This document shows positions 4,494 through 35,230 of a DNA stretch of 64,000 bases, piece by piece; the first letter of the stretch is position 1, and each line of letters begins with the position of its first letter. The DNA is from Lama guanicoe. Lineage: Eukaryota. Made by a program: the position numbers and the translations under genes. The notes below the pieces were generated by a model that ran no database searches, had not been told where the DNA came from, and saw only the letters and a program-made list of their open reading frames with translations. The stretch is from positions 92,132 to 156,131 of the forward strand of contig MU053347.1 in the NCBI GenBank assembly GCA_013239625.1, read 5' to 3'.

Positions 4494-4653
4494 GTGGAGG
4501 ATATCACTGAGTTTGGCACTGATTGCCTGGAGAATGCTGAAACCCAGGGAAGTGGGCAGCACAGACGTTTACTCATTTAATCCTGGCAACACAGTACGAG
4601 ATAGAGTCTACAAATTCCTCGCTATTTAAAAAGGAAGGAAAAAGAGGCACAAA

Positions 4654-4677
4654 TAACAACAACAACAACAACAACAA
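4654..4677. repeat. (CAA)n microsatellite inside a MIR fragment
   Basis: aacaacaacaacaacaacaacaa. Confidence 0.85.
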
Positions 4678-5484
4678 TTTTTCCAAGATTCACACAGAAC
4701 CCCCTGGAGGCAGAGTGAGAATTTATACTCAGGCAGGCTGGCCCCAGAGCCCCAGCTCATAACTACTAAGTCAGATCACCTTGCTTATGTGGATCAATTT
4801 TTTTCAAGTGTGATATGAGGGTACTGTGTCCAGTAACTTATAATTTCAAAATAACTCACTGTAAGGAAATCAGTTGCAGGCATTGCAAACCACAGAAAGC
4901 TAGACATACAAAAATAACTCGTTAGGGCAAGATAACCAATAATGTTTTTAAATATTATACTTGCTGAACCTTTGCAATAAAATGTGTATTTTTAATTCTG
5001 TCTGGCTACAGAATAACTTCATAATCCTGAATGTTGCTGGTGGCTCCAATGGTGGACAGCACGGGCCTAGAGAATTTAAGTGACTTGTCCAGCCTCGCTC
5101 AGTAAACTTGTGGCGGGATCAGAGCTATAGGCTGGGACTTTTCCTTCCTATTCAACATGTCCCTCATGGAAGTTTAGAAGATTTCCTTTGGTGCACAGCT
5201 GTCTATCCATACTTATGACATCTTGTCAGGTGTCCCAGCCTGCTCCTGAACATCAGCCAGTAACCACTTCTGCTCTTTTCTGGCCAGGTAATACATTCTA
5301 GCAACTTCCATTGACTTATTGACATCAGTTCTTACCTGGAAGGATAGTGGCTAGGGATGCAAATGTGTCCACATGACAGGATATTCATAAACATAGCAGG
5401 AGTTGTCAAGAGAAGAAAACGTCAGGAAGACGAGTGGAAACAAGTCATTTAATACACCAAATGGGTACTTTCAATGTATGTTTG

Positions 5485-6005
5485 TGTTTCCAAGTCCAGA
5501 CTTGTTCTGTTCATGCATTACAGGCCAATATATCGGGAGACCAGATTTTGGGGCAACAAATAGCGACTTTAATTTGGAAAGCCAGCTGAGAAGATGGAAG
5601 TCTAATGTCCTGGAAAACCATCTACCGACGTCAGAATTCAGGCTCTTTTTATATTAAAAAGGGGAAGCAGGAATGCTTGGTTGTTGCAAACTTGGTTTAT
5701 GAATTCTTCGTTGTTAGAATCTTTTGTTCTTGCAGCTCTTCACCTGGGTCAGATCCGTGTAAACCTCCAACAAACAAATGTTATTTTATATTCTGTAACT
5801 TGTTATCTTTATATGAATGGAAAAGTGTTAATATCCTTTAAAGTCAGGGCCTTGAGAATAGGGCCTCCTGTATGTATCAGGCTCTAGGCAACATTGTTTA
5901 ACAAAAGGTGCAGAACCAACAAGACTAATCCTAGGAAACAGGGCACAGGTTTAAAGTGAAAAGAACAGATATAATATGGAGTCAGATTTGTTCTTTCCTA
6001 TTTCA
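5485..6005 (-). mobile_element. ERV1 solo LTR (MER41/LTR39-like), copy A
   Basis: TG...CA termini. Homologous along its length to 6679-7153 (inverted) and 42722-43261 (same orientation). Shared terminal motif atggagtcagatttgttc. Confidence 0.85.
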
Positions 6006-6678
6006 GTAGTGCCATGGAGAAGACACTTTGGGCAGCTTGTTGTAGGGTCCTGGAGGCTTTCTCTCTCAGCCTCTGGGCGCCTCTATTGTAAACCCTTCAT
6101 AGCTGTCTGGCCTGCTGGAAAAAGACTCCGACTGTTTTGCCCAGAAGATGTGTTCTGTTTATAACTCATCTCTACTCCTTGGAAAACAACTCAAGAGAAA
6201 CTAAGTTGGCTTTCCACCAGCCCTGGACAGGGGTGAGGGATAGCATGTTATTATTTTATAAAATAAAAATAAAAATAAAAATAATAAAAATAATAAAAGA
6301 AGTCTTAAAACAGCACTGTGCACATAGCAGAGAGACAATAAATGTTTCTTGGCTTAAATTAACAGTGATGGCTCAGTGATTCCATGGCTACTGTATTTGC
6401 TGTGCTAGATACTCCTTTGCTCCATTAAAATTTTTTTAACTGAAAAAGAAATACATGCATATGATTAAAAAATTTCAAACAGAGCACAAAAATACACAAG
6501 TGAAAGAAGTTTTCCCTCATCCTCTGTTCTTTCAGCCCTCCCTGGAGATGCCACAGTTTATCCTTTGTGTGCTTTTCCAGATATGTTATGCACATTCTCA
6601 CCTATGTATGTAAATTCCTTTAAACTTTTACTAATTTTTAACTTATAGGGGTATAAATCCTCAAGCGCCTTCTGCCCG

Positions 6679-7153
6679 GGTAATAGAAAAGAACAAATCT
6701 GACTCCATACTAGATCTTTTCCTTTGACTTTAACCCTGTGCTCTGTCTCCTAGGCTTCATCTTGCTTGTGAAACAATGTTGCCTAGAGCCTGAAATATAC
6801 AGGAGAGCCTATTCTGAAGTTTAACGATATTTAACACTTTTTCATTCATAAAAAGATAACAAGTTTCAGAATAGAAAATAACTTTTGGTTTGCTGGAGGT
6901 TTAGAGATTTGACTCAGGCAGATAGCTGCAAGAATAAAGGATTCTAACAAAAAAGAATTCCTACACCAAGAAGAGTTTGCTACAACCAAGCACGTAGGAA
7001 AGGAGCCTGAATTTTGACTTGGGGAGATGGTATTCCAGGACATTAGTTTGCCATCTAGGTCTACAGAAACTTGCTATTCCACGCCCCAACACCTGGTCTC
7101 CCAACTTACTGGCCAGTCCTGCACTGAGGAGAATGAATTTGGACCCGGTAACA
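6679..7153 (+). mobile_element. ERV1 solo LTR (MER41/LTR39-like), copy B, inverted relative to copy A
   Basis: gtaatagaaaagaacaaatctgactccat ... ggacccggtaaca is the reverse complement of copies A and C. The polyA-signal region is deleted or degenerate. Confidence 0.85.
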
Positions 7154-7779
7154 CTCCTATTTACCTAGCAAGCTGGGCACTGGAACTGAGGGCAGCTCTC
7201 CCACACCCAGGGACCTACTGTGAGCCCTTGATGGTTCCCCTATAGTGGGGTGTGGTTTAATCAGGAGGGATGGGGACTATGCACCAACACTCAGGCAGTC
7301 TGCTCCCTCTGGGGCTCTGATCTTGTACCACACCGCTCCCCGCCAGCCCAACACCTGGGACAGTGGAGCTAAGGCAGAGATCTTGCCTGCCTGTTTCCCA
7401 GCGTGTAAAAGGGGAATATGTACTCTTCCCAAGGTACTTCTGAGCGACAACACCCGCTAGTGCTTGGTTCCCAGAATAACAGGAAACCCAGCTCCGCGTG
7501 GGGGCAATGGGTGTGATCCCCGTAGGGGTTCTGCAGAGGCCTCGGCTGGAGGGCTGGACCAGGGAGGTAAAATTTGAGCTGCGGGCCTTGAAGGGTTAGA
7601 GAAGGGTACAGAGGCAGGACTGCCGCCTGTTTCGGGGTTCGCCCAGAGGTAAAGCTTTTTCTCTCCAGCTCTGCTACTCCCCTCCCTCCTCCAGATTACT
7701 CCCTTCTCTCTGCACCTCCTGTCCATCTGTCTACCTCCACTTTTCCCCTCCTCCCCTCCTCCTCCGATCTTCTCCCTCC

Positions 7780-8400
7780 CTCACTTCCCCAGCTTCTCTC
7801 ACAGAACCCAGAGGAGCGCTGGCCCTCCTGCGCATGCGTAGTCGGTGCCAGGTGGACCGCGGTTTGGAAGCTCCAGCTCCGAGCCGGGGATCGGCCACAA
7901 AGGCTTCTCAGCTATGTCACCCGGTAGGCCTTTGGTTCCTTCCCCGGGCCGGGGCCTCCGGCTGTGGAAGTACAAGGTGGGGGGCTCACGGGAAAGGTTC
8001 AGGCGGCTGCGGGAGGGCGGTCGGCGTGTCACAGCCCGCGAGGGCGCGAGTCAGCATGTGTTCAGCTGAATTGCTCGGGCCAAGCCCCTCTGCCCCGGCG
8101 CCCTGGCCACAGCTGCCCAGGGCCAGGTGTGCACCTGCCGCCTCTCGCCCCAGCCGGGGTCCCCTTCCCCTCTCCCGCCCGCGAGTCCTCTCCTCCCGGG
8201 CTTCCTCTCCTAGGCCGCCGGCCCGTCCCCGCCCCTGGGCGGGCTGTGTCCCGGGACGGCGGGGTCTGCTGACCCGGACGGGGGCGGGCGGCTGGGGCTG
8301 GGGCTGGCCTCCGAGCGGGGCTGCAGCCCGCGTCAACCCCCCCCCCCCGCTTTCCCTCTCCCCCGACCCCGGGGCTGCACTGCTCTCCCTTTCCTGCTCC
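7780..8400 (+). promoter_or_regulatory. CpG-island promoter with NRF1 motif
   Basis: Strongest dense CpG/GC-rich block in the window. TGCGCATGCGTA at 7829-7840, GC-box-like GGGGCGGG at ~8281, upstream pyrimidine tract 7655-7800, candidate donor AAG|GTGGGG at 7976/7977. Confidence 0.85.
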
Positions 8401-8405
8401 TTCAG

Positions 8406-8545
8406 GACCTGCTCAGCAGCGTGGGCGCTGCTCCCAGGGCTGAGAGCCTCAGGCTGTAAATACCACCTTCTCCTGGTGAAGTCGGCAAAAGGGAGCGTCA
8501 GTGCTGAGGTAGCTTCCGTCTCCTCCCTCAGTGTTTCTGCCCCAA
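8406..8545 (+). ncRNA. Predicted non-coding exon of a CpG-island-driven transcript
   Basis: Long polypyrimidine tract ctctccctttcctgctccttcAG and strong donor CAA|GTAAGT, 140 nt. Confidence 0.5.
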
Positions 8546-8934
8546 GTAAGTACCTTGAATACTTTCAGGTGTTACGATGGCTGTGCTTGTTGATGTCACA
8601 TGTTTTTATAGTGAGAGAGATTACTGGGTTGAAAGCAGGGCTTGGTTCAGTTAAAAATGAGCTGAAGGCATGAGTCTGTGACATCCTCCAGGCTTCCCTC
8701 TCCCAGGGTGAAACGTGTGACTTTTGATTTTAGAAAGATAGTTACAGTCCCTAACAAGTCCAGCCCAGCTAGTGTGTGTTAACAGGAAGAGCACCACCAG
8801 AGGCGTTGGAGACCTAAGGACATTGCAGTCCTAAAGATCTCCTGGCACAGTTTGGTTTGTTTTGGTTTTTTGTTTTTCTTAAATTGTGTGGCAGACTAGT
8901 TGCATAGAGGGGAAAATAATTGTCAAGAAATATG

Positions 8935-9300
8935 TTTTTCATATAACAGCTTTATTGTGATATTGTTCACACAAAATGAAGTCATCCATTTAAATGGTAC
9001 AATTCAGCAGCTTTTAGCATATTCACAGTGGTGCAACCATTATTATTCCAGAACGTTTTCATCACTTCAGAAAGAACAGTGGAAATCAATGACCTATCCA
9101 CCCTTCCCCAGTGGTGGTTCTAAAGAAGTTTCTTGGTTGTTTCTGACCATAAATTAACTTGTTACATTCCATGAAAAATCTGGTAGGAATTCTAATCAGA
9201 ATTGCATTGAATCTGTCTATCAAAACAGGAAGAATTAATATCTTTATGGCATAAAGTTCTTCTACCCATGAATATATCTGAGACGCTATCTTTTCATCTG
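8935..9300 (-). mobile_element. L1M fragments
   Basis: cagctttattgtgatat...catccatttaaa and the ORF2-like peptide ILPVLIDRFNAILIRIPTRFF on the minus strand. Confidence 0.75.
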
Positions 9301-9574
9301 TCCAGATCCTGGTCCATGGGGAGTCCTCGATAATTGTTGGGCTTGTGAATGATGAGGTTCTATACATTGTTAGTTGCAACTCTAGCCTTTCACTGAAGAG
9401 AAAAGTAACCTCAGTTAAGCCAAGTGACTCTCTGATGGTCAGAAAGGGTACAGTCAGTGCTGGAGTGATCCAGTGGACTTGCTGCTTGCAGCCAGAATTC
9501 TCCACCACCTATATCTACGGGGATTACAATGTTCTTTTATTTTTTTTTTAATGACTTGCTTTTATTTTTCGAAT

Positions 9575-9830
9575 TATTTTTTATTGAAGTGTAGTTAACT
9601 AACAATGTTAGTTTCAGGTGTATAGCAGAGATTCAGTTATAAACATATGCATATATATATACGTACGTTTTAGATTGTTTTTAGTACAACTGATTACAAG
9701 AATTTATATATAGTTCCCTGTGCTATATAGCAGGTCCTTGTCATATATTTTATATTTATTAACGTGTATCTGTTAATCCCCCTTTTGCGCCTACTAACCA
9801 CAGTTTGTTTCTATGTCCATGAGTCCATTT
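9575..9830 (-). mobile_element. Camelid/laurasiatherian L1 3' end
   Basis: ttttattgaagtgtagtt..acaatgttagtttcaggtgtatagca...ccctgtgctatatag...ctatgtccatgagtc. Confidence 0.8.
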
Positions 9831-12060
9831 CTAGCAGCTCCATTTTTCCTAGTTAATATATGCTGCTTGGCTGCTTTCAGTTTCAGTAATTCCATCTTAT
9901 CTGTGGGCATTTTTCTTCTGGTGGGCCTGTATGTGGTTTGCACACGTGGTAATAGAGATCTGTATTTGGGAGAACTCCAGGCCTCGTGCAGTCTCTGGTA
10001 CAGAGCGCCCACTGAGCTGATGCTTGAACTGGGAAAAAAGCATAGTAAATGTTGGAATTTCCAGTATGGTTGAGACTTCCAGGTTTCTATAACCTCTGTA
10101 GCCCACCTTAATATTGGCTGCACCCATACTGGGTAATTTGGTGGAACTCCATGTTATGGGCATCTAGAGACAGGGCCTTGTATGCTTCTTCTCTTTCCTT
10201 TTTCTAACACTTATTCTCCTTGGCCTCCCAGATCCTCCCACAGCAGTCCCCAGGGATGGCTTGCTGCTGCACTCAGGCAATATTTGTTAATAAGGCCCTT
10301 TCCTCATCTCTTCTGAGCCTCCGTTTCCTTCTCTGCACAATGAGACCGTAGACTAGATAAGTCCTTGTCAGTTTCTTTTAAAGCCATGTTTCCTTTGAGA
10401 AACAGAAAATGCAAATCTCTCCTCCCATTGTAACCCTTTAGATTTTGATACGTCCTCCAAGGATGACATAGCTGTTTGTGGAAAACTGATGCGATTGTGA
10501 TTCCAGATGGCACAGAAAAAAACTCTTCAGAAATTTATTGCAGGGTAAGGGCAGGAAAGGGGCAGTATGTCACACTTTCTAGCGTGAGCAATGGAGTTGG
10601 GGATTGGGTTTAAATACGGTGTCTGTTGTGTTCTCTCTCTAATCTTGCACAATGTGATAAACCTCTCTCCCTCAGTTTCTTCATGTGTCAAGTTGGGGTG
10701 ATAGTATTTTAGGGTTTTTGTGAAACATTATACACATAATCAATTTGTGTCTTGGTAGAAATAAGAGGTGCTAGGGAGTCAGTGATTTCTTTAAAAAAAA
10801 AAAAATCTTGTCCATAGCACTCTGTCTGTGTGTATTTTGATGTTCCTGGAGGGTGAGTGTTGAAACTAAAGTCCATCGTGGGACAGGTGGCCCATGGTTC
10901 TCTTTGTCCCAGATTGCCCCCTCCTGCCCAGTCCTCTTCCCCTCAGTCCAGGATGAAGTTCCCTGGTAGATTTACACAGAGTTCTTGTGGAAATGGCTTT
11001 TCATTTTATTGTTTCACCAAGGAGGGCTGCCATCATGATCTCTGTGGTCAGGTTTTGGTGACCTGAAGGCTATGCATATGAGGGTTTCTATTTAATAAAA
11101 AGAAAAAAATTACAAATACAACCTTAGACCTAGGGTGGTGACAGGGGCTCTTGAAAGTGGGGACCATTAGCTTTGTTAGCTTCAGGTGCAGTGGCCTCTG
11201 GCCATGAGGACCCATCCTCGTGCTCTGAAGTTGGAGGGACCAGTGGGTTCAGTGGGAAATTTAACTGAGTGTATCTCATGGTCTAGGGATTGTCCTATTT
11301 GTGCTGTGTGTTCCTTATTTGAGACAATGAACTCATTTAACCTCAATAGCCTCTTTAAAAAATTAGACTTTTAATTTTGTGATATAATGTAGATTCCCAT
11401 GTAGTTGTAAGACATAATATGGAGAGGGCCAATGGACTCTTTGCCCAATTTTCCTTAATGGTTCAATCTTGCGAAATTCAGGTACAGTTCATTATTGACT
11501 CACTAACCCTTTGAGGTTTGTATTATTGCCCTCATTTCTATTCATGATTAAACTGGGGGTTATAGAAGCACATAGTCCTGCACAGTTCACCCACATGGTT
11601 AGTGTAGAGTCGGGTAAGCGTGGGCTTGGGACTTCCAGGCAGTACCATTATGATGGTCTTTGGCAGGGAGCAGCATGCACTTTGCTTGTTTATTCATTCA
11701 TTCAACAAACATTTATTGAGTAACCTCTGTGTGTCAGATGCTTTCATAGGGTTATCAGATTCTTTAGCAGTACTGAGAATCAGGTAATATTTTCTTTTTT
11801 TTTTTAATCTGAGAAAATTAGCTCTGAGAGGTTATAAACCCCCCAAAGGAAATATAGCTCATAAAGGAAGGATAGTAAATTTGTACAGTCCCCCCTTTTA
11901 ATGCAGGTGGTACCCTAGGCAATTTACATTTGCAAACTTCTGTAACCCAGATATATTCTTGTAAGGCAAGGATTTGATTTTTAATTGAAGTATAGTCAAG
12001 TTTACAATGTTGTGTCAATTGCAGGATGTTTTTTGAATTTTGAATTAAAGAATATTTTTT

Positions 12061-12180
12061 GAGGAGGTTAATTAGGATTGTTTATTTGTTTCATGTTTTA
12101 AAATGAGGTACTGGGGATTAAACCTAGGACCTGGTACTTGCTAAGCACGTGCTCTACCACTGAACTGTACCCTCCTCCCC
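12061..12180 (-). mobile_element. Camelid tRNA-derived SINE (Vic-1 type)
   Basis: aattagg..tttatt...gaggtactggggattaaacctaggacc...ctaagcacgtgctctaccactgaact. A/B boxes are on the minus strand. Confidence 0.85.
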
Positions 12181-12611
12181 AAGGCAAGTTTTCTTATCCA
12201 TTATTCTGCAGCTTTGGAGTTCAAATAAGTTGGCGTTGAAATCCAGATGTTTTGATCCCAGTGTGGTTCTTTTCTTTATATTCTGCTTAAAGGGGTGTGG
12301 AAAGCAGTTCCTTTGTTCATTTCTTTATTCCTCAGTTTTGAGCAGTGACTTTGCATCAGTGTCTGGCTAGGTACTTGGAACAGAAAATAAGAAATTACCC
12401 TGCTCGGCAGGGGCAGGAAGCCTAGACCAAAAGCTGGGTAATGTGATCCGACCTACAGTAGCTATGTGCAGACACTGAGGACAAACTTTACCCCCGGCTT
12501 TGCTTGGACTTCCCTTGTCTTCTGGCTGGTACATACCAGGTCACCACAACCCAGAGGGGCCCACAGCCCACAGCAAAGTATGTATCTCGATCTCCTCTCC
12601 CCTCTTGGCAG

Positions 12612-13169
12612 AAGCTGAAACATGAGCATCCCTGACTACCTGCAGTGCGCTGAGAACGACCAGATTCTCCCCGTGGTGGTCCAAGCCGTTGGAATCATCT
12701 CAGAGGAGAATTTCTTTTGCATCTATAAGCGAATCTCCTTGGTGAACCAGATCAGGCTGTGCGGCTCAAATTGGGCACTCGGGCACCACTATGTGCCCGA
12801 GAATGGGTGGAGAAACTTCCAGACCTACAGCAAGGTAGTGGGCCTTGTCACCATTACCGACTGCCTGTCTGCCAAGGCCTTCGGGAAGCTCCGTGTGCAG
12901 AGGAGCTGTATGGCACCGCGCTTAATGACTCTCAGCTCTTTGTCTTTGTGCTGCGTGGAGAGGTAGCCTAGCAGACGCGCACCGACGTGGCCTTCAATCT
13001 ACGAGTACTGCAGGCTGGTGAAGAGGATTGAGGATTTCACTGAGTCACTCTTCATCATGCTCAAGTCCGACTGGTTGGAAAGGGCCCCCGATAAGTCTGA
13101 GGACAAGATCCCCCTCCTCTGCACATTGTTTGAGAAGGAGGACTTCATGGGACTTGACACAGACAGCAG
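12612..13169 (+). pseudogene. TRAPPC9: Non-processed, disabled copy of TRAPPC9 (NIBP) first coding exon
   Basis: Translation across frameshifts [38 protein letters not shown]...[20 protein letters not shown]...[15 protein letters not shown]...QTRTDVAF...[14 protein letters not shown]...[23 protein letters not shown] matches recalled TRAPPC9 aa 1-195. Acceptor tcctctcccctcttggcAG at 12610-12611, ATG at 12622, donor AG|GTAAGT at 13170. Lesions: 1-nt deletion ~12901, TAG at 12969-12971, ~5-nt deletion ~12996. Confidence 0.93.
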
Positions 13170-13405
13170 GTAAGTCTACCTGGAGGCCCGGACACCCTGG
13201 CTGTGTGCCGGATTGCTTCCCTACATCCAGGAAGGGATCAGCAAGGAAGAGGGCTGTCTTGTAGCCAAGGTTGGAGGGAGGTGAAGCCGGCCGGTTTACA
13301 GACATTTAAAAGTGAATCCACCTTTCTTTCAGAGAGATTGTTTTAGTGTTAGTGTGGACACTTCCTCCCGCTTTTCAGCCAGGAACCCTGGTGGGACCCC
13401 TGGAG

Positions 13406-13729
13406 TTGCTGTCCAATAAATTAGCCACGGCCACTGATACTAGGAGCTCTGGGGAGGAGGCTGGTCTGAGCTGACATGTGCTGTAGGTCAAATGCACATC
13501 AGACGCTGAGACTTATCTAGTAAAAGCAATGTAATCTATCTTCTTACTTTCTATATTGATTACATGTCAAAATGATAGTATTTTACATACAGTAGAATAA
13601 GTAAGATCGGTTCTTAAAATCATTTTCTAATATTTGTTTTTTTGTTTGTTTGTTTCTTTGTTTACTTTTTAAATTTGGCAACTGGGAAACTTTCTTTACA
13701 TAGATCTCATTTCATTTCTGTTGGGCAGC
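13406..13729. mobile_element. MER33-like hAT-Charlie DNA transposon fossil
   Basis: TIRs gctgtccaata / tgttgggcagc. Internal tatattgattacatgtcaaaatgata..atttt matches the recalled MER33 consensus. Confidence 0.8.
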
Positions 13730-16700
13730 CTGTCCTGGGACAGTCTCATTCCTTTGCTTATACATGGGATGCTGAATCCCGAGATGCAGAACGAGGCTCT
13801 GGTTGAGCTGGGGATGGTGTTGGTGTCTCCTGCCTCCCAGGCCCAGCACCTGCACGGCTCAGGCCCTTTCTTCATGCCCGACAGCCACCATGCCAGTTTA
13901 GGATATCAGAAACACCGCCAGGGACTTCCGAATGAGCTCCTTAAGCAGGGAAAGGCATGTCACGGAGTATGGGACAGAGCAGTGAAAGATTCCTCCTCAT
14001 TCTGTCCCTGTGATTAGGTCAACGGCCCCACTTTGCCTCGGAAGTGTAGATGAGATCTTCTGGGCTGCCTAACCCCCCACATTCTGCTCTGTTTCCCCGT
14101 GTGTCTATCGTGCTGTCCCTCGGGCAGAAGAGGGTGAGATGCCTTTGCCGAGAGGTGGTCCCCCTTTGCTGGGGAGAGTGAGGGAATTTGTGTCCCCCCG
14201 GCCTACGGCCTCGGGCCTTGAGTCCGGACAGCGCTGATTGCAACCCACAGGTGACTGTTGGAGGACCTGGCATGTGATGCCGGGACCGCTATGGAGGCAG
14301 TGCTCTGTGATTCTTGAAGTTACATAAGATCAGATCCTACTTTCTGGTTATTGGTCAGTTGGAGGAGAAGATGCCAGAGAATTGATAAAAAGAAATTCCA
14401 GACCAGCCCTGTGAGTGAGAGGCACAGGGGACCCGAGTCCCACCTGCGTGTGGTGTCTGGCGAACTATGGATTAATTTTCAGTTCCTCCCAGGAAATTCC
14501 TCTATGGCTTAAGGAAAGGGCAAGGAATTTCGTGGCCATGATCTGTACTTGTCTTCACAGGGACCTGTGATCTACATGTCCTCACTCCCCTTCTGCTCCT
14601 TGGAGTTGAGGTGGCAAGTTTAGGAGCCTGGGCACTGCTGAAGGCACAGCTACCAGCATCAGGCTTCGCCCAGACTGGCCCCGTTCACCTCACCTGTCAC
14701 CTCCTGCTGAGCCCCTAGGCATCAGTCAAGGTAGGTGCATAAGTGCAACGTAAGCAGGGACCACCTTCTCCCCCTGGACACACTGGTTGGTGAGCAGTGG
14801 AAGCCTAGAACCATGCCCCGGTCCCCTGGCCAGTGCCTCGTCTTTTGTCATAGGAGGCACTGGTGACATTTTTGCTTAGCAACTGCTTGGCTCTGAGTCT
14901 GCAGACCCACCAGAGAATGCCAGCTTGTTTTTGCCTTTTGAAGTCTGTCCTCGGGATTTGGCAGAGTAGCTGGATGTGTGCTTAGCCCATAGTGGTCGAC
15001 ACTGTCACCATTGTTTACCAGAACCTCGTGTACCAGGCATGGCTCCTGGCATCAAAATACAGCAGCGCATTAAAACTGCCTCCTGGTGGGTCTGTCTGTT
15101 TTGGTACAATAAGCGCCCAGCCAGCATCTGAGCGTCAGTGAGGTAACGCGGCCAGTGAGCTCAGGTCAAGCACGTTCTCCTCCAGTCACTTTTACTCCTT
15201 GTTCCTTTTACTATTCCACAGTCATTAATTTATAAAAGAATGCTTTGGTGCAGGAGCAGAGCCTAATTTTCTCCTGCTACTCTTGGTGGGAGTGAGTAAA
15301 ACTGTCTAGCCTGAAATGCGACCACATTTTGTAGCTCAAAAGCTATCTAGACGCATGTTGGTGGAGTTTTGGTTGGGGGCTCTGACCACGTTGGTGTCCC
15401 CCGGTAGCGCTGCTCCCCACAGGCCCCTGCCTTCCCTGGAGCAGGAGGTGATAGTGGGTCTCACCGACCCCACGTCCCTGTCCTCATCACACTCACGTAA
15501 GTTCTTGTACAGGCTGTCAAAGTCATTTTTCTTCTTGTGTGTTTCTAATTTTTGCTTGTTCCGCTTTTCCTTTTTCTTTTTTCCTTTTTCTCTTGTACTG
15601 CCCAGTGAGCATGTTGTTGCGTCTGAAAAGGTGGGCTGTGCACACCCTGCATTGGAAGTAGCTAGATCGCCCTCCGTGCTGTCTCCATCGCTTTAAAAAG
15701 CAAAAACTTAACAACTGCCTTGATCCATGTATTATCCTAGTCATCTATTTATTTTCTAATTTTTTGGAATATTTGCTTTGTTAGCACATCACCAACTGGT
15801 GTTTGATACCTGTTAAAATCCTTGCTTTGAGGAACCTGTTTGGTCCTCCTTATATTTGGTAACAAATGCTCCCTTATTAGATTTGTTTGTTTGTTTTGAA
15901 GAAGTGAGATGTGAATTGAATTAGGCTGCTGCTGAGGGATTCTTTTCATGGAGTATTTAAATTTGGAAAGTCAAAGTCTGCAGCAGCTTGCTCGATTTCT
16001 GCTTTTGCACAAACGTGCTTGGCATGTGGTTCCTAGCTGTCGCTGTGTGACGTGCGTGACGGCGCTGCCTGGCCGGCGGTCACTGGTGAGGAAGTGGCCA
16101 GCTCGGGGGTGAGCAGCTGCAGGGGACGCTGTGGGAGGAAGCATTAAGTTTTTTTTTTGCACTTCCACGTGCCATTTACTTTGCCTTCATAAATGGGCAG
16201 AATTGGGTCTAAAATCCATGCCACTCTTTTGTTTCCTTTACGAGGCTGTTTTTTCTGAGTATCAGGACAACATGGCCTTCTCCTTAGTAGCTGGCTCACC
16301 TGGATCTGGTGGACAGAGGGACCACTAAAGGGGACCGTGGCTTCCTCTGTGCTTCAGCCAGTGGGCATGCAGAGCCAGGTCTGTGGTTTGGCTCAGCAGC
16401 CATGCAGGCCTCCCTGCACAGGACTTTACCTTTAACACATGTTAGCAGTAAATAGCTGACTCCGTGTCTGTTGCAGCTGACGTCCACCACTGACGGCCGT
16501 GACGTTAGTTTGCGGTAGTGACTTTCCAACACCCCAGTCAGCCGTGTAGGAAGAAGCTTTGACCTACCTAGGACCTTGGATTCTCACCCCCACCCTGGTT
16601 CATCTCAGTCGGGGGAAGGGTTTGGCCACCACCGTCATGCTGGCCATGAGGCCTTGTTTGTCCTTTCATGCTCTGGTCCAAATGTGGACACTTCATCGTT

Positions 16701-19700
16701 CACTGACTTGGTCTCGCTTGAGACAGGCCAGACTTTCTGAAAGAGTCCATCACATTCTCGGGGGGAACAGAACAGATTTAAGTGTCGCAAGTAGAAGGAG
16801 TCTAGGCTGTCCGGGTTGGCAAATGCAGGCTGGGATCTGTGATGGCTGGGCTGTGCCCTGGACACAGACCTTTTCTGTGGCTTCCGAGAGCCCAGGGGTT
16901 GGAGTGAGAACAGCCTTGCCTGGGTTCCCCCATCCTCATCTGCTCTCTGGCAAGTGTGTCTGCTAATTAGGAGCTTCCCCAGCCCTCAGGCCCTTCAAAG
17001 TTCAGACCATGGAAGAACCTTGAGTCACTTCTCCTGGTCCTCCTTGGTGAGAATCGAGTGCCTTCTGAGGTGACCTGTACCAGGAGATGCCTCCCCCTCC
17101 AGGGAGCACCCTTCGGAGGACTGTGACTCACTGCACCACGCTATGAGCTTGTGGGGTTCCGGCCGTGGTCCCTGCAGAACCAGACTTGAGATTGGCTTAG
17201 CGATGGAAATGACAAGACAGATTCCAGGGCAGGGCTGGGGGGAGGGAACAGGGGAAATTTAGTGTGACCTCAAACACCTAGGTGGGTGCTGGGGCTGTTA
17301 CTAAAATTGGGCGCCTGGGAGGTACCTGCCAGGAATCGAATTCCAGAGTAAATGGTGGACATGAGGCATTTTTAAGATGCCATTTGTTATCCAAGTTAGG
17401 ACTTCAAAGAGGCACTCGGGTCTATGAGCCTGGGGCTCAGGTGAGGAGCCGGACTAGAGATACACGTTGGGAGTCGTCATTCTTAGCTGGTGTTCACAGC
17501 CGTGTAGGTGGATGAGCTAATCTCTAGAGCTGCAGACTAAAGCTGAGGGGGGACAGAGCTGTGCCACGGTTGGAGGAAAGCCCAGACCATGCAGCTTTGG
17601 TGTGTCAGTCAGCGGCGTTTGCGATTTTCAGAGCAATGCGATTTGTCCTTAAGGGGCTGGGGGTTGGGCAGGGCCACCCAGGAAGAAATCTGAAGGGAAG
17701 GTTGTGGCCACGTGTGCGCGTCTTGGGAAGATCCAGAGGCTGCAGGGTCCTCAAGAGGAGACTCCTCAGAAGCTAGAGTTGGAGTGGGGAGTGGGGAGAA
17801 GGTAGTCACACTCACCTGTGAGAGAGGGAGGGAGGCCTAGGGAGACCCCACCTTACCGGACTCGCTTTCCCATGAACAGAAGGCAATCAGACAGAGGATC
17901 TGAGATGAGAAGGGATGGGCTCTGGGTGAGGAGCCAACCTGGAGGATGGTGCTTAGACAGTTCTGGAATAGTCTCCCTGCAAAATAGAGTTAAAAAATCT
18001 CAGAATCTTAAGAACATTGATCATGACTGGGGAGGAGACAGTCCTTTTACTGGCCTCCTAAGGGTAAGGCATGTATCTGGGGATACACAGAAGAATCAGG
18101 CAGTCTGTTCCGGGGGCTTGACCCTTAAAAGGGGGAACAGAGCAAGTTTAAAGGGGGAGAAGGGCAGTGGAGGGAAACTAGCCCGGCCCCATGTCAGGTA
18201 CCAGTTGGCCGCGCTACTTGCGTGTTGCATTCACATCCATGCCTCTCATGTGGTCGGTGGCAGCCCCCTTTTGAAGGTTGGGAAGCCTTCTCAGAGGGAT
18301 TAAGGAATTGGTCCGTTTAGCGGCTAGTGAATGCTGTAGCAGGATTCAAGCAGGGCATTGGCAGACTTCAAGGTCATGTTTTCTCTACTAATTCTGGTAC
18401 CTCCCTGCTGTACCTGGAATGGTGAAGGGGGTCAGTTTTGGAGCCTTTCAGAAAAAGTGCGATTTATGTGCCTCAGGACTGTTTCACAAAGCTCAGTGTT
18501 CTTTGATGGTTTGGAAGCACCGCAGTGCTTTTCGCCCCACAGAGGAGGTCTTATTGACGATGACGTGGTTGCAAATGACGTACAGTTGCAAAACCAGACT
18601 TAGCAGCTTCTGAAGGGAAACTCTCCAGTTCTCCCTTGATAGGCTTTCTTCCGCGGGATGTCACTGTGCTGCAGCGTAGGCCTGATGTTTCCGTATGGAG
18701 TGAGGGTTTGATATCCAAAGTTAGCATAAAGTTTTCAGATGATGAAAATCGACGTTGACAATTTATTTTTGGGTTTCATTAGACAAGGTATACTATCAGT
18801 TCATGGCCCATATAGCGAATGAAATGGAGTACAGAATATTGCATTTCTTCCTTTCTATTTAGAGTTCTCTTAGAGCATAAGGCTGCCTGCTTTGGAACAT
18901 CAGTTCCACCACCAGGGCGCCAGTCAGTGTGTTGGTGTGATTGCATTTACACAGTGAATGTAATCTGGGCTTCCTCAGCCCCAAAAACTCCAGTGCAGAA
19001 TCACGGGCTGTAGCTATCTGTTAGTCACGCAAATACTTCTAAAATTATATGATGATAGAAAAGAAAGAAGAGCGAGAGAGAGATTGCCTTTATTAAATGT
19101 CCTTTCAATTCTAACTGCAAACTGTTGTTGAGCAGCTTTGGCTTCCTTTGGATATGAATATATTCATTTCTTTGCATGTAACCTGGGTTTTGGATTAGAA
19201 CACCAAGCTCTTGTCGTCCACAAGACACAAAAATAGTAGCCAAATTGCACACGTGTGAAATATTTTATTCTTTTCTTCTGAGAAATAAACCTTGAATTTG
19301 TGACTTGGGCTGTGATTTTTGCTTTTTGCTTCTCCCACCCCTCTTGTAATCTCTCACTCCTTCACACGTGGCCCCCAAGAGGTTGTGGTCTCAAAGGAGC
19401 GGGCAAACACCCAGTTGGTCGCCATGCAGTGCTGTTGTAGATGGAGCCCAGCCAAGACCTAAAGGACATCAGAGAGGACTTCCTGGAAGAAATGGGCTCT
19501 ACATTCAGTTGTGAGGACATAGTAAGTGTCAGCCAGGAGAAGGAATCAAACGGATGGCTCACGTGGCAGGTGCAGCCCGGGCAGACGCCTGGAGGCTTGT
19601 GGGGTGGGGACTCGGGGAGAGTACATTGTGTGGTCCAGTATGGAGGGTGCCCTGCTGGGGAGGAAACTGGAGAGGACCTGGGAGGAGGGCTTTGGAAGAG

Positions 19701-19854
19701 GTTGGGTTTTACTAGAACTGACACAGGAGGCAGTGAAGGGTGTCAGCAAGAAGTGACCATCAGGAAAGTTACTTCTGGTTTTGCTTCTGATATTCTACAG
19801 AAAGAAGGGCTGGGAAGGGCGAGAGCAGGTATCTCTGTCCCTTTGAGACCCACC

Positions 19855-20240
19855 CTGTCATTCATTTATTCATAAAACGAGCACTTCTGAGTGTCTAGAG
19901 GAGAGAGGGTGGACCCACATTAGTAAGCAAAATGTATTTGCTTCTTGGGAGCTTAGCAGTGTCAGAAGTTGACTTAGCCTAGAATGTTCTAGTAACAGAG
20001 GAACGAAATGCGGAAATTGGAGGGAGGGAAGGCTTTCTTGAGAAACAATCAAAATGAGCCTGGAGGCAAGTGAGAAGTAGGAGCAAGTCAGGGGGCCCCT
20101 GAGGTCACTGGGGACCTGGGTACTGAGGTGAAGCTGGGCGAGCAGTGTCGCGGGGGCTAGAACTCCACCAGGGAGCCTCTGAAGGGTTTGAAGTGGTGGT
20201 GATGTAATCAAATTTGTGATTTGGGAAGGCTGCCCTGGCT
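19855..20240 (-). mobile_element. L2 LINE fragment
   Basis: cattcatttattcataaa (L2 tail), ggaaggctttcttgag, gggagcctctgaagggtttgaag, ggaaggctgccctggct. Confidence 0.7.
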
Positions 20241-20241
20241 C

Positions 20242-20278
20242 TGTGTGTGTGTGTGTGTGTATGTGTGTGTGTGTGTGT
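20242..20278. repeat. (TG)n microsatellite
   Basis: Direct inspection. Confidence 0.95.
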
Positions 20279-21332
20279 AGCGGGGAAAAGGGGGAGGGTG
20301 CCACCAACTGGGGGGGTGTCATTAGAAGACCATTCACAGGCTGGGAGGTGACCCGTGGGAGAGTGGCGTTGGGGCTCCTTGGGGACGGCAAGGGCAGTGT
20401 GGATGCCGGATTTCCTTATGGGGTGGGCTTGTTAGCGGGGCTGCCCTAGCGGCGCATTTTGGCTGGAAGAAAACAGATGGAGGCCGCCAGGTGGACTTTC
20501 CTCTTCTCTCCTTCCCTGCCTTGTGTGATGATCTTAGCTCAGCCAACATTTGGAACAGAAGAGCTAAGTTCCAGGGTAGCCCAGGACTTTGTTGAGCTCG
20601 TTCGAGGGAGATCTGATAGGATTTAGGTTTGTGTTCAGATCTGCATGTTCACTTAGCTAGAAATGTCCCATCTTTTGGATTTCCATAGGCGTTTTATTCT
20701 TGATAAAAATTGCTTTCTTGGTGAGAGGAAATTTAATACAGCTGTTATCTTTCTCAAAAAAAAATCATATCTTTTAAGAACATTAATATTCAAAAGACTA
20801 GGAATATATAAAAATGATAAAGTAAGACTTTGGTGTAGTTTCTTTGGTTTCTGAGTTAATATGGGCTTATAGCCTTCGCATTACTTAATAGCACATCCTT
20901 GTCAGTATGTAAAAAATAGATGTTAGTGAGTGCCCCAGGCCCCACCTCTCAAAGCATCATTAAAGTTTGCTCTGAAATAGTGAGGTCATAAAGGTCTTGT
21001 TTGCAGAAGCCAAACGGTTTATAAAATGCAGCATAGCTCCCTATATAAAATATTAATAGGATCAACATTAAGAAAGTGGAAGATAATTGTTTTTTTTTTA
21101 AAGCTGAAACATAAACTTTCTTGTGCTAATGTTGCAATTGGTAATTTTGAAAAGAAAAATCCTACTGTAATATCATCTACATTGAATATATGTGTGCCTT
21201 AAACATTTCAAAAGTAACTGCGCAGTGGTTTTTGAAGTCAGGAGCATTCCAGCTCAGATAGTGGCAAGGATGGTTGCTGGTTTTGAATGGAAGAGCCTGA
21301 ATTTGCCTTCCTAGGTTTTTTTTTTTTTTTTT

Positions 21333-21371
21333 NNNNNNNNNNNNNNNNNNNNNNNNNNNNNNNNNNNNNNN
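21333..21371. other. Assembly gap after poly-T
   Basis: N run. Confidence 1.
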
Positions 21372-21894
21372 CATGATATTGATTTAGGGGCAGATGTCGT
21401 GTACCAGCAGTGAGATATTTCCATGCATTTTATTTTCCGGACATCACCAGGGCACTTGTGGGGTTTGTGCCTGCAGGCTGGGATGCTGCAAGACTCCCAG
21501 ATCCATCACCATTATGTCGTGGAGCTGCTCCAGTCAGTGAATGATTTTCTGTGGCTTGGAGGTAAGGTGGTCTGATGCAGATGATCAGATGTGTAGTTAA
21601 GGTGTTATTACTTGAAATAAGAGAAATCAAGAAACATGGCTCTAAAAATACAGGATGAGGGAGGAGAACTGTCAGAGCTGCTTGCAGTGGGGCGTCTTCT
21701 CAGGTGACTCCCTCACCGTGATTCCTGCCAATATCCGCCTCAGCCCTGCACGATAGTCCTGCCGAAGCAAGCATGCACTTTGCTCAGAAACGCACTGAAT
21801 TTCCTTGTGCCTCTGTTGACTATTTTTTTACAGCACATCTTGCCCTTTGCTTAATTGCCATCCCTGCTACTCACCTCTTAAACTCATTTTCTGG

Positions 21895-22490
21895 ACTTCG
21901 TCCATACATAGCTGTTGAATGGATGAACAGAATGTAGTATCTCCATGTAGTGGAACATTATTCAGACATAAGTGTGAATAAAAATGAAAAAAAAAATTGA
22001 GAGGAAAATGAAAAAGGCCACCTGTTCTGGGAAGTCCACCCTGACTGCTCAACCAGAACTTTTCCCTTTGAAACCCAATCCCTTATGCTCCACTCTACTC
22101 TTTTTGATAGTACTTACCACCTTCTAATAAACTTTAACGTTTTCAAAAAAAGAGAAAGAGATACTGATACCACTTCAACATGGCCGTGCCTTGATAACAG
22201 CATGTTAATTGAAAAAAAGCAGACACAAACGGCCACATATTGTTGATTTCAGTGATCTGAAATGCCCAGAAAAGGCACATGCAGAGGCAGACAGCAGGTG
22301 TTGGTTGCAAGGGGCTTGTGAAGGGGGGATGGGGAGTGACTGCTAGTGGACAGGGGGTTTCTTTTGGGATGATGGAGTGTTCTGGAAATAGATGGTGGTG
22401 AGGGCTGCACAGCAGTGAGTTTGCAGAAGACTGCTGAGCGCTGTCTCTGGGAGTGCCTGTTGTAGGGCGGCTGTATATTGTTCTCATCCT
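21895..22490 (+). mobile_element. L1MB-like 3' end, interrupted
   Basis: gaatggatgaacagaatgtagtatctcca...aaggcac...gggagtgactgctagtggacagggggtttcttttgggatgatgg..tgttctggaa. Confidence 0.75.
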
Positions 22491-23514
22491 GCAATGTGAA
22501 GAGTCATCTGGTGCTGTGGCATTTCTACTCCTGTGAGAGGTGAGGCTCTGAGAATTTGCAGAGTCATTTTTCTTTTTTCCCCCTTGCTAAGTGTAGGCAA
22601 AAAAGGTTTAAGCCTGAGAAATTGCTCCATCTGTAGAAATGTATTTCAGTTTTGCATGGTGTAAGAATCTTGTGAGCTTTTATCGTTGAGGACAGTCTGT
22701 GGGGGGAAATAGCCCGTGAAGCCTGGGTGAGACCGGGATGAGCCGCGCTTTCTTCCCTGACAAGGGTGCGGGTTTCACCCCCTTTCATGCAGTGAAGTGC
22801 CAGACCCGTGAGCGGAGTTGACACTCGTGAATATTTACGTGTATCCACTGCTTCATCTTGGATATTAATTTCAAGCTGAGTCAGTTTGTGGCCGCAGCCT
22901 CATCCTACATCAGGAATTCATAGTATCTGCTCTTTGAGGTGAAGACCAGACAGACTTGATTTTTTAACAGTCTCCCTTGAATTGATATCTCAGATTCCTT
23001 TGTCAGAAGCAAAACAACAGAAATACCGACATCCTTTAATGCCAATGTGACCTGGAATGGGTTTAGTCTCAGTGCCTCAGTGGCCTTATCTGCAGGTGGA
23101 GAAGATGATAACAGTGCTTCCCTCAGAGGGGCTGGTGAGGGGGAAGTGAGAAGCACAAATGGAGGACTTACACTAGATCCTCATGAATGACCGAATTTAG
23201 TGCTCTCAGCCTTGTGAGGCCTCAGGGGCAGAGATGTCAGAACAAAGCAGTCCTAGCCGGAGCTCGATTTGCGTTGGCAGCTGTTACAATCACTATCACC
23301 ACTGTGGGTTATCAGGTAGTTTTAAGACATGGTAATATGAATTCTTAAATAATGTTAAAAGAATAGACAACTCAGATTCGGTTTACATAGTTCTCAAGAT
23401 CTCCTCTGAGAAATGGGTGTTTTTTTCCCCATCTTAAATCTGAGTTGATTCTCTAAAAAAATTGTGTATTCTTCCATCATTTTGCTTTAATTCTCCATTT
23501 CTTATAAAAAAAAG

Positions 23515-23598
23515 TTTTTAAATGGAGTTATTGGGGACTGAATTGAGGGCCTCATGCATGCTAAACACATACTCTCCCAAATGAGGTATAATCTCCCT
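23515..23598 (-). mobile_element. Camelid Vic-1-type SINE, degenerate
   Basis: aatggagttattggggactgaa...ctcatgcatgctaaacacatactct. Confidence 0.75.
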
Positions 23599-25596
23599 CT
23601 GATTTTTTTTAAACTTTAATTTCTTAATTTTCAGAGGTTACAGGCCTCTAATTCTTTTTCTGGAGGCTTGTCCATGAACCTGTAAGTCTATAATTAATGG
23701 ACAAAATTGGTTTATTAAAAACATCAATAGAATATTCTGCAATCCACTCCAAAAGGAAATGCTCTTTGACTTAAAAATGTTTCTCCTTTATGGTGATTTC
23801 TTCTTTTTGGTCTAGCTTAATTTATTAACAGGCATCCTCATCATCATAATGACCAAACTCGCTGTGAGTGAACACCTACCTGAAGCTAAAATGCTTTCCT
23901 CATGTTTTACTTCAGTGCAGGTGTTTGAGTGTAGGTATCAGTGTCTCCTTTTTTGCAGCTGAGGGATTGAGAGATGGAGCAGCTTGTCCCACATCACAGG
24001 CAGCTGGCGGTGGCTAGCTGGGTGCTGGAACCCTGGCTGCACAGGATGCATTCATAATTGCTCCTCTTATCAGCCTCCCTTTGAGGGGTTTCTGAAATCC
24101 TCTGAGTCCATAAATGGCCGGTTTTAGTGATCTCAGCCTGATGAGGCCTTGAAAGGAGAGACACCAGTGAGAATGTGAGACAGAGTGGCATACATTAAAA
24201 TTGTACATTTTCACAAATGTTTTATTCTCAGGTAATGACTTAAAAATTTATTATTTTTTTTATTTTAGTGCTCTGTAAGCACTAAAAACAAAAGATTAAA
24301 AGTAATTATAGTGCAAAAGAGAAGTGGGTTTGAAAATCCAACCATTGCTCTAGATGTTGCTTGTTTTTCTCTAGTGGCTCTTATTGACAGAAATACAAAG
24401 ACTGAATTGGTTTTATGTAGTCTTAGTATGGAAGAAAAGATTGTCAGTGAATATTATAAGTAAAATCTTTACTATTTTCTTTCCTGATGATGAATATGTA
24501 AGTTGTTTTCATGGCTTAAGTACATTTCTTCATTTGTGAAATTTGAGTGATATCTTTTACCTTGTCTGACTGTGAGAGTTAGACGCCTTGTATACAAAGC
24601 ACCCAAGAGGTTCTTAATAAAAATATGCTGTCACAATGACAGATAGTTTAGAAGGATCAACTCTGAATACTAAAGAGGGTGGCTTATTTCTGATGCATAT
24701 TCAATATGCATATATATGATATATATTAATATGGTTTAAAGTAAAAGGATTCTTTCTTTTTAGCCTGAGAAATTGCAGTATGAACTTTTAATGAAATCTG
24801 TATCATTCTAGTGAGACAGGGACTAGTTAAATTGCCTTAAGCAGACAACAGTGAAGATTATTTACTCAGAATAAGTATTGTTACAACTCAGAATTCATGT
24901 TGCCGTGTAACCATCCACTCAGACATTTAAATTCGTGTGATTCTGAACAGATCCATTAAGTTTAGAAAAATCCACATTGATCATTTTCAGGGAGTAAGCT
25001 TCTCTCTTTTGTGCTTAAAGAAAATTTTAATTTTTTCCCTGCACTCTTAACACGTTTAAAATATGAAAATATTGATTTGACGTGTCACTTTTAATAGAGA
25101 GAATAAAGCTCATGCTGTTTTATTATGTAAATAAATGTTTTTGTATTTCAAAAAATTTGTATGATTTCCTGGCTCTTTGAGAAGTATTTTGCAAGATACT
25201 TAGATTACCTACTGTTGGAAAAATACAGACGGGACATTTATGAATATAGGTCTAGTACAGATCTGTTGGTTTTTGCTACAGTGCAAGACATGAGGCCTAG
25301 GAGAGCTTTGCTGCTGATTGCCAGGAGGACAGATCTCAGGTCTCAGTCTCCCCTCCTGTAAAATGAAGTGGCTGGACTGTATTCTTTCCTCTTCTAAGAA
25401 GAGTTTCTATGAGCCTATGTCTTTTGTTTATATTCAGGACTATTAGCAATATCAGATTAAATACTGAATAGTCCTTCTTTCCCCCCGAAGCAAAGTGTAG
25501 TATGTGATACGTAAGCTTTTACTTACCTGATTCTCGTTTCTGTTCCTACAGGCAATTTTTGTGTTGCATGTTTACCAGGAACCTGGAAGGTCTTTT

Positions 25597-25615
25597 TAGC
25601 CATAGGTGGCGCTGT
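25597..25615 (+). promoter_or_regulatory. Candidate CTCF site
   Basis: tagccatAGGTGGCGCTG. The right half of the CTCF core matches well, the left half is imperfect. Confidence 0.45.
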
Positions 25616-26999
25616 TGCACCTTCTTACAGTCTTAATTTTCCTGTTTGTAAAAGAAGGCTTAAACAACGTGATTTTATTTTAATTTCTTTGCTTAACACT
25701 TCAGAATAGCAAAATGTCCATTGTTTCTGTCTACCTGGAAAAATTATTCTGCTTACATCTCAGTTTTATTCTGTCATCTCGCTGTGAACATTTCAGACTT
25801 GCTGTGCAAACAATGGCAAAATCTTACTTTGCTTCCAGTGTTAGAAACCAGTGAGCCGGGATTTTATAAAACAGCTGGAAGCAGCCGCTGGAACACCTTA
25901 AATGTGAAAAGTGTATTGAGTTCCCTGAGTATTGACCCTGCCGCTGTGTGTTAATAGGTGGGAAGTGATTTGGCACATATAAGAAGGGGTGTAGTGCTTT
26001 GACTTGGGTTTGCGTGCACGCGCTGCCACTGAGCCATGTGAGACTGAGTCAGTTCGTTCTGAGTTTTTCCCTCGTCTGTGAGATGGGGACGCTCGTATCT
26101 GCTTTGTAGAATTTTGAGAATTAGAAATTATGTACATTGTTTACCACAGTGGGTATGTCAAGAGGGCTCATAAACTTTAGCTGCTGTTTTGTGTGAAGCC
26201 ATCATTTAATGGTCTTTGGGAATTACTAAGAAACAGGAAATTAAGTAAAGCTGGTTTTATGATGAAAGATATTTGAGGAGGTTCCATAGTTCCTATACCC
26301 ATAATTAAGCATCAGCAGAGTCAGAACTGTTACACAGTCACCCTGAAACAATGTTAAGCCACAGAATTTTTTGTTACTTCATATATGTTGGAGCTTAACG
26401 GGATCCAATATTTATACCCATGTTGTCTCCAGCAGCCAACTCAGAGATGACTGAAAAGAGTAGGCAGTCGATAAATGTCTTCTTTGTTACTGATGAAGCC
26501 ACGTTCTCCATAAAATTCAGGGCTGTGGGAAAATGCATGTCGTGATACTGTGTCCCAGATGTAGAGACTCACCGTGTCCCATGTAGCTCTGTGCGACAGC
26601 GAGCCTTCCCTTGAGAGGACCTTCCCCTTCATGCACAGGGCTGTCCTGCCATGGAGTTGAGCATCCCGGGTTCTTCCTAAGGGTGGCCAACACTGGAGGG
26701 AAAGGAAGGGTTTCACATGCCCTGCTTGTCTCCCCGGACTCACATCTCACTCTGTATTGTGACAAGGGCTATCTGTGGGCCAGTGGTCAGCGGTGTGAAG
26801 GAAGAAGCACTCTCCATGGCCCAGAGGAATGGGGAGGAGGAAACTCCTCCCTCAGTTTAAACAGGTGGTGGGATGAAACAGAAGGGTGCTCCCCATGAGT
26901 TTATAAAAGGAGAAATAAGGATTTTCTTTGGGACTTAGACTAGCCAGGAAACATATAAGATGATTAGAAGGGAGACTTGTAAATTACTTTAATATTAAG

Positions 27000-27215
27000 T
27001 TGACATTTGTTGAGCACCAAAAATGTGCTACATTCTTTTCTGAGAGTTTTACAGAAATGAATCCTTCAATCTTCTCAACAAGTGAGTAAGGAAGGTTTGA
27101 TTGTTATCCCAGTTTAACAGTGTGCAAATTGAGGCACACCGAGGGTAAGTAATTTGGCCAAAGTCAGAGAACTAGTAAGTGGCAGAGCTGGTATTTAAAC
27201 CCTGGCTGTCTGGTT
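27000..27215 (-). mobile_element. MIR SINE
   Basis: catttgttgagcac...atcccagtttaacagtgtgcaaattgaggcac..agggtaagtaatttggccaaagtca..actagtaagtggcagagctgg. Confidence 0.85.
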
Positions 27216-28650: not shown

Positions 28651-28748
28651 CTTATTTTTATTTACTTTTATGAAGGTACTCGGGATTGAAGCAAAGACTT
28701 TGTGCATACTAAGCAGGTGTTCTACAACTGAGTAATACAGACCCTCCT
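28651..28748 (-). mobile_element. Camelid Vic-1-type SINE
   Basis: aggtactcgggattgaag...tgcatactaagcaggtgttctacaactgag. Confidence 0.8.
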
Positions 28749-34939: not shown

Positions 34940-35230
34940 TAAGGTTTGAAATTGAGAATTACAAGTCCTCTCACGTTGTTCTTCTTTTTCAAGTACGTTT
35001 TGGTTACAGAGACCCTCGAATTCCCATATGAATTGTAGCAGCAGCTCATCAGTTTCTGCAGAGGAGCCCGCAGGAATTGTGATCCAGACCACATTGAATA
35101 TACAGATCACTCTGGGGAGTACTGCCATTCCAAGAGCACTGTCTTCTGATCCAGGAATCTGCGTGGTGTGTCTGTCCTGGTATTTAGGTCTTCTTTAATT
35201 TTATTATTTCAACAATGCTTTGAGTTTACA
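34940..35230 (-). mobile_element. L1 ORF2 fragment
   Basis: Minus ORF MAVLPRVICIFNVVWITIPAGSSAETDELLLQFIWE resembles L1 ORF2 MAILPKxIYRFNAIPIKIP..FF.E..K.ILKFIW. Confidence 0.85.

Follow-up and report, generated by a model that had tools for sequence, protein, structure and literature searches.

Probable unprocessed 5'-partial TRAPPC9 pseudogenes amplified in camelids, examined from a decayed copy in Lama guanicoe

Duplicated (unprocessed) pseudogenes form a recognized class of sequences within segmental duplications. In primates, the core duplicons TBC1D3, NPIP, NBPF and RGPD are dispersed gene-derived segments with lineage-specific expansions, and positive selection by dN/dS was reported for TBC1D3 (PMC11037872). 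In camelids, PMC13751797 gives more than 11 million years for the Camelus-Vicugna split and describes pseudogene-rich repetitive blocks in alpaca, with NEK10-, ATF5-, FMN2- and ABHD17A-like sequences; TRAPPC9 is named neither in its main text and one supplement nor in the main text of the VicPac3.1 paper. Many of the copies considered below already carry the NCBI label 'TRAPPC9-like' (background from the annotation). No description of a camelid TRAPPC9 copy family was found in the literature searched, although the family may be listed in gene-family tables of camelid genome papers.

The partial TRAPPC9 unit in the window

The window, a 64,000-nt stretch of Lama guanicoe contig MU053347.1, contains a TRAPPC9-derived exon that an earlier note had presented as an orphan, decayed in its coding content and intact at both splice sites. 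The exon and its parts are as follows.

12612..13169, plus strand: decayed TRAPPC9 exon 2 (first coding exon), length 558 nt
12622..12966, plus strand: residual ORF of 114 codons, following the parent frame as far as about aa 102 and shifted from there to its TAG stop
12901..13000, plus strand: out-of-frame stretch bounded by the 1-nt and the 5-nt deletion, which together restore the frame

This description of the exon itself was confirmed. A pyrimidine tract and cag lead to the acceptor border at 12611/12612, the ATG lies at 12622, and the donor AG/gtaagt lies at 13169/13170. Frame 1 starts with MSIPDYLQ and stops after 114 codons; TRAPPC9 sequence then resumes and ends with DTDSR. Frameshift-aware alignment yielded the identical six deletions against 6/6 mammalian orthologues (12 nt at ~12781, 3 at 12808, 12 at 12877, 1 at 12901, 5 at 12999 and 3 at 13021), with 68-69% identity over 182 codons, and the previously counted total of 12+3+12+1+5+3 = 36 nt proved exact. 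From the start Met to DTDSR there were 195 aa (584 coding nt) in each of the 108 orthologues that showed both motifs. The claimed parental length of 594 nt was thus supported for its coding part, and is reached with a presumed parental leader of 10 nt before the ATG (584 + 10 = 594). The 114-codon ORF matched no Pfam family at the cut-off and nothing in a PDB sequence search, and a PDB search with the parent profile returned only yeast Trs120, outside exon 2. Twenty-one CpG sites are left in the exon.

Additional TRAPPC9-related features were found on both sides, several of them named from gene models of related camelid copies (hereafter sister copies).

7555..7593, plus strand: putative homologue of the human TRAPPC9 upstream alternative first exon (tblastn best match, E 0.02)
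7800..8400, plus strand: apparent duplicate of TRAPPC9 exon 1 and its CpG-rich promoter; candidate donors 7923 and 7976
8406..8545, plus strand: cryptic or alternative exon in sister-copy models, acceptor and CAA/gtaagt donor present
14560..14787, plus strand: cryptic exon that sister-copy models place after exon 2, matched by 20/120 proteins
21453..21561, plus strand: TRAPPC9 exon-3 remnant, donor GAG/gtaagg kept, 5' end and acceptor lost
37653..37773, plus strand: TRAPPC9 exon 6 (aa 287-327), 121 nt versus 122, in-frame TAG at 37745
44421..44547, plus strand: TRAPPC9 exon 7 (aa 328-369), frameshifted, 127 nt versus 126, both splice sites present
4507..62239, plus strand: minimum span common to sister copies (duplication unit, ends not located), 19 segments

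Upstream, an exact 10-residue match (EVKFELRALK, at 7564) was shared with the N-terminal extension of human isoform P0229, and no further word of more than 5 residues was common to that extension and the six frames of the window; the homology at 7555..7593 is modest when taken alone, and its position and strand fit a first exon ahead of exon 2. The kilobase 8001-9000 has a GC content of 0.58 and 46 CpG, the highest CpG count per kb in the window. The goat N-terminal extension P0214 matched 7843-7971 (E 0.004), a GC-rich, low-complexity match of modest weight.

Downstream, tblastn with full-length TRAPPC9 matched aa 208-243 at 21453-21560 (69-75% identity, E ~1e-11) and aa 323-371 at ~44404-44553 (E 7e-4 to 2e-3), while five mammalian queries matched aa 287-327 at 37652-37774 (E 2e-8 to 1e-10). 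The exon labels 6 and 7 follow human numbering. With 32 sub-queries, neither exon 4 nor anything past aa 371 was found in the window, nor was a second TRAPPC9 unit found inside it. An assembly gap (21333-21371) lies ~80 nt before the exon-3 remnant, which leaves a small chance of a local misassembly there; the bases between the gap and the remnant showed no homology to the missing exon start.

The four coding exons, at 12.6, 21.5, 37.7 and 44.4 kb, thus lie on one strand and in gene order, 8-16 kb apart and with intronic borders. The exon at 12612-13169 is therefore not isolated from the rest of the gene as an exapted orphan exon would be: a promoter and exon-1 region (7.5-8.4 kb), the exon-3 remnant and two later exons share its strand and order. 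The peptide of the next exon that had been used as a probe is indeed absent, but the earlier statement that no exon follows does not hold, as only the 5' end of that exon is gone. Introns are present and exons unjoined, unlike in a processed pseudogene (retrocopy). The retained introns, the four coding exons in order and the promoter homology agree with a duplicated (unprocessed) pseudogene, and so do the disabling lesions, namely two TAG codons (12964 and 37745), a disrupted frame in each of exons 2, 6 and 7 and loss of the exon-3 acceptor. A partial duplication at the DNA level, as first suggested, is supported by the presence of introns, promoter and downstream exons alike, and the feature is an intron-containing 5' partial duplicate of TRAPPC9 that carries the promoter and roughly the first third of the gene.

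Recruitment of the exon into the transcript of another gene, also suggested earlier, was not borne out. The duplicated TRAPPC9 promoter sits ahead of it, and gene models of sister copies splice exon 2 to their own exon 1, to in-unit cryptic exons or to the exon 2 of another copy. Moreover, no Pfam family was found in 148 of the 155 stop-free frames of at least 75 aa, and hence no host gene; the other frames were the exon ORF, which was scanned separately, and six frames across the N gap.

Several repeats accompany the unit. A tRNA-like Rfam match (12104-12174, minus strand), 440 nt before exon 2, is most likely a tRNA-derived SINE, which we take to be a camelid SINE, and similar elements were seen by eye near 58090 and 61800. 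Downstream of exon 7, direct repeats at 47791-48274 and 53987-54472 (~485 nt, 86.8% identical) flank ~5.7 kb with an N gap; 47791-54472 is probably an old endogenous retrovirus-type element, and no Pfam family was found in its longer open frames. Three related LTR-like copies, 78-85% alike, occur at 5480-7080 and 42700-43270, two of them inverted around 6.0-6.7 kb. In the sister models P0012 and P0013, an LTR of the type at 42762 serves as an upstream exon and is spliced to exon 1 or exon 2, so an LTR may feed transcripts into the next unit.

Sister copies in Camelus and Vicugna

In a search with the 114-residue ORF, short camelid proteins made up 15 of 22 hits, and in another search 36 of 36. 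Cluster look-ups enlarged the camelid set to at least 120 sister-copy proteins among the matches listed. All short homologues came from Camelus or Vicugna; the absence of short hits outside camelids suggests a camelid-only origin, the tree having been built without a camelid parent. Among 97 proteins with contig labels, 19 contigs were represented in V. pacos (15 of at least 20 Mb), 8 in C. bactrianus, 14 in C. dromedarius and 3 in C. ferus, the dromedary entries perhaps deriving from several assemblies. Length alone served to distinguish the contigs. Five further V. pacos contigs, two of them large, brought the alpaca total to at least 24 (17 of at least 20 Mb) among the matches listed. Up to 14 isoforms were annotated at one locus.

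Altogether, the 120 proteins matched 19 separate plus-strand segments of the window at 55% identity or more. The stretch 12394-13272 was matched by 118 of the 120, 37647-37894 by 33 and 8323-8541 by 9, and the exon-3 remnant was used by none of them. The duplication unit is probably ~55 kb or more, and some segments may be interspersed repeats present elsewhere. Sister-model exons also fell within introns (14016-14141, 31606-31852, 34991-35035, 36507-36623, 37256-37390, 56242-56274 and 61222-61269), several of them with an AG acceptor at the expected place in the window copy.

Four of the six exon 2 lesions recurred in the 97 proteins: the 3-nt deletion at 12808 in 83, the second 12-nt deletion in 79, the 1-nt deletion in 64 and the 5-nt deletion in 44. 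The parent-type motif was present in 0/97 at the first three of these sites (the 5-nt site lay outside this test), and in the remaining proteins of each count the site was uncovered or the pattern escaped. The first 12-nt and last 3-nt deletions of the window were found in 0/97 and in 0/23 further proteins. Four lesions are thus ancestral and family-wide, and two (~12781 and 13021) private to the window copy. The alternative that the lesions are sequencing errors does not stand for these four, since they recur across sister copies from four species.

In a tree of 97 columns, and so of limited resolution, the copies were separated from 7 orthologues with support of 100/100. The window fell in a 7-row set (98/92), the other members of which were 4 rows from Camelus and 2 from Vicugna; an alpaca-only clade (11 rows, 99/97) and a Camelus-only clade (8 rows, 99/93) were also recovered. 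Two rows (P0332_1 and P0340_1) are partial repeats of the same proteins and were dropped from the residue-variation test below. Because one set is mixed, amplification began before the genus split and continued after it.

Selection, splicing and competing explanations

Taken together, the anatomy, the shared lesions, the multi-copy state and the subfamily spanning both genera are well accounted for by a neutral, probably transcribed family of unprocessed 5'-partial TRAPPC9 pseudogenes amplified in camelids, which we regard as the probable explanation. The duplicate to which the exon belongs retains introns and comprises the promoter, exons 1, 2, 6 and 7 and a portion of exon 3. One ancestral copy would have arisen before the Camelus-Vicugna split and taken the four exon 2 lesions; it would then have been amplified across chromosomes, probably head to tail, as a segmental-duplication unit of the size given above, with genus-specific bursts later. 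The copied CpG promoter may still drive RNA in many copies, in which the inherited splice sites would join exon 1, cryptic exons or the exon 2 of another copy, and the products would be non-coding RNAs or short unstable peptides.

Next in standing, although unlikely, is a family of the core-duplicon type that encodes a fast-evolving protein of 100-190 residues derived from the TRAPPC9 N-terminus, with selection acting to preserve the exon 2 frame of the source copies and with the window copy as a recently dead member. In its boldest form, to which we assign the same low probability, the TRAPPC9 5' end would have spread to many chromosomes both ahead of the camel-alpaca split and later, its source copies holding exon 2 in frame by compensating deletions, and would supply a new, fast-evolving small protein or a dominant-negative TRAPPII fragment, as a non-primate counterpart of NPIP and TBC1D3. 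The indel pattern of exon 2 speaks for it: four of the six deletions have lengths divisible by 3 and the remaining two compensate each other, so that the frame is kept overall, whereas 4/19 indels between LTR copies in the window are divisible by 3 (binomial P ~0.02, post hoc; P ~0.10 for 4/9 when the three frame-breaking indels of exons 6-7 are counted). This joint frame-keeping is one hint against pure neutrality. Additionally, the frame is open across exon 2 in 24/97 models on 8 contigs (7 Camelus, 1 Vicugna), 14 of these models being isoforms of one locus. The first 93 codons of the window are free of stops, an outcome reached in only ~12-28% of neutral simulation runs, which likewise speaks against pure neutrality. 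The number of isoforms annotated at one locus and the genus-specific bursts would also fit such a family. Against it, 31/97 models stop within the shifted stretch, as does the window.

The pattern of substitution was likewise weighed. Relative to the window, median identity was 0.767 in exon 2 versus 0.818 in non-coding segments, the latter biased upward by the trimming of short segments, and exon 2 was the higher in 5 of 23 models, a subset of 50 rows picked so that single loci were not counted repeatedly. Exon 2 thus diverged at least as fast as its flanks, as a fast-evolving protein would, but CpG decay explains this equally well. Substitutions in the family ignored orthologue conservation: in 51 family rows compared with 64 distinct orthologue N-termini, columns invariant and variable among orthologues carried 2.83 and 2.84 residues per column, respectively (rho ~0), and 13 family-majority residues were absent from every orthologue. 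The shifted stretch would also hit two predicted strands (112-118 and 132-135) of the parent N-terminal alpha/beta domain, in a structure model with a mean pLDDT of 36.7 (~46-68 locally) that gives weak evidence, and the open-frame copy P0325 was predicted without a confident fold (mean pLDDT 30.3), again weak evidence given its shallow alignment.

A second and markedly less probable alternative is that the family is kept as a spliced non-coding RNA, linear chimeric or circular, with the exon 2 splice sites under selection. In the sister-copy models, 41 of 45 contexts upstream of the ATG depart from genomic read-through by hand count; the upstream partner is exon 6 in 15 of these, exon 2 in 8, one of the two exon-1 donors (7923 and 7976) in 6, and an LTR or cryptic exon in the remainder. 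Past the donor, 41 of 74 contexts depart, 22 read through and 11 end, and P0009 splices the cryptic exon at 14560..14787 to the exon 2 donor. This use of the same borders would favour the RNA, and back-splicing, mapped onto adjacent copies, could explain the 15 exon 6-to-2 and 8 exon 2-to-2 joins; such joins imply either head-to-tail copies in the assemblies or back-splicing mapped there. However, these are predicted RefSeq/GenBank models, not reads, and were selected for ORFs and splices. Furthermore, 22/74 contexts read through the donor, which is mutated in a Camelus subfamily, and the splice partners are heterogeneous, unlike those of a fixed functional transcript. In a sequencing-run search, 20 of 24 rows contained part of 12000-13800, none with half or more of its words; the share in RNA rows was small (0.06-0.14), and the rows are unaligned, hence not evidence of expression.

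Selection on the splice sites themselves, raised as a possibility in the earlier note, was not supported. In a neutral simulation of the window's exon, the observed identity required ~0.12-0.16 substitutions per non-CpG site. At 0.12-0.14, survival of all four GT/AG bases had a probability of 0.57-0.62, and survival of 11 consensus bases one of 0.21-0.27. Of the 8 splice sites bordering the four coding exons that were detected, 7 survive, versus ~6 expected. The splice-site loss in related copies that had been proposed as a counter-indication was found in part. Seven proteins from 5 contigs (P0006, P0007 and P0037-P0041) carry Lys or Asn, ungapped, at the TAA codon of the window, the first base of which is intron +2 (T in the window, replaced by A in this Camelus subfamily). 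Since Lys and Asn both need A at that position, the donor GT is lost in the subfamily. At 13170-13172, the same change also removes the read-through stop and extends the frame by ~33 codons into the intron. We propose that the splice sites of the window copy persist because too little time has passed for their loss.

Finally, that the window holds the species' own TRAPPC9, decayed or mis-sequenced, is very improbable. In its favour, no camelid full-length TRAPPC9 was present among the matches listed (120 of 1009 hits, and at most 15 per cluster elsewhere). Against it, these are a small part of all hits, models from four species share the lesions, exon 4 and all past aa 371 went undetected, and camelids presumably keep an intact TRAPPC9 gene.

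Relation to described systems

Human TRAPPC9 is located at 8q24 and human POFUT2 at 21q22. Two dromedary genome-wide association studies (PMC10357240 and PMC8027435) give 'TRAPPC9' among their candidates, once together with POFUT2, at ~31 Mb of chromosome 14, and the candidate is repeated in a review (PMC12351130). Alpaca chromosome 14 corresponds to human 13q, whereas 8q corresponds to chromosomes 25 and 29 and 21q to chromosome 1 (PMC6598621). Because chromosome 14 does not match human 8q, the association hits probably name a sister copy, assuming that dromedary and alpaca numbering agree. If so, SNPs at that locus may be paralogue differences. In both studies, several associated SNPs cluster at 30.8-31.4 Mb on dromedary chromosome 14, a pattern that collapsed duplications can produce (PMC10357240 and PMC8027435).

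More generally, TRAPPC9 copies can be mistaken for the real gene, and the family probably gives rise to rearrangement and mis-assembly in camelid genomes. Its importance lies in the copy family, the single exon in the window not being special, and an old, repeatedly amplified, dispersed family offers a useful non-primate test of the core-duplicon idea.

The window copy resembles TRAPPC9 (NIBP, Trs120; a TRAPPII subunit, PF08626) in its promoter region, exon order and exon 2 borders, but represents only about the first 370 of 1138 codons, and 0/3 family proteins tested matched PF08626. Like duplicated pseudogenes, the copies combine copied introns and promoter with disabling lesions and neutral-looking divergence; unlike them, they lie in high copy number on many chromosome-scale contigs and have many annotated spliced isoforms. 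The multi-copy gene fragments in duplicated regions of the alpaca genome are similar in kind, but the blocks described in PMC13751797 are local, on chromosomes 11, 17 and 36, and absent or reduced in camels, whereas the TRAPPC9 copies are dispersed and occur in both genera. With the primate core duplicons (PMC11037872), the family shares over-representation in interspersed segmental duplications (at least 24 contigs in alpaca, 8 in the Bactrian camel) and lineage-specific expansions, seen in the alpaca-only and Camelus-only clades. The TRAPPC9 copies showed no constraint in the protein-level tests, and by its anatomy we would place the family among the duplicated pseudogenes and not among the core duplicons.
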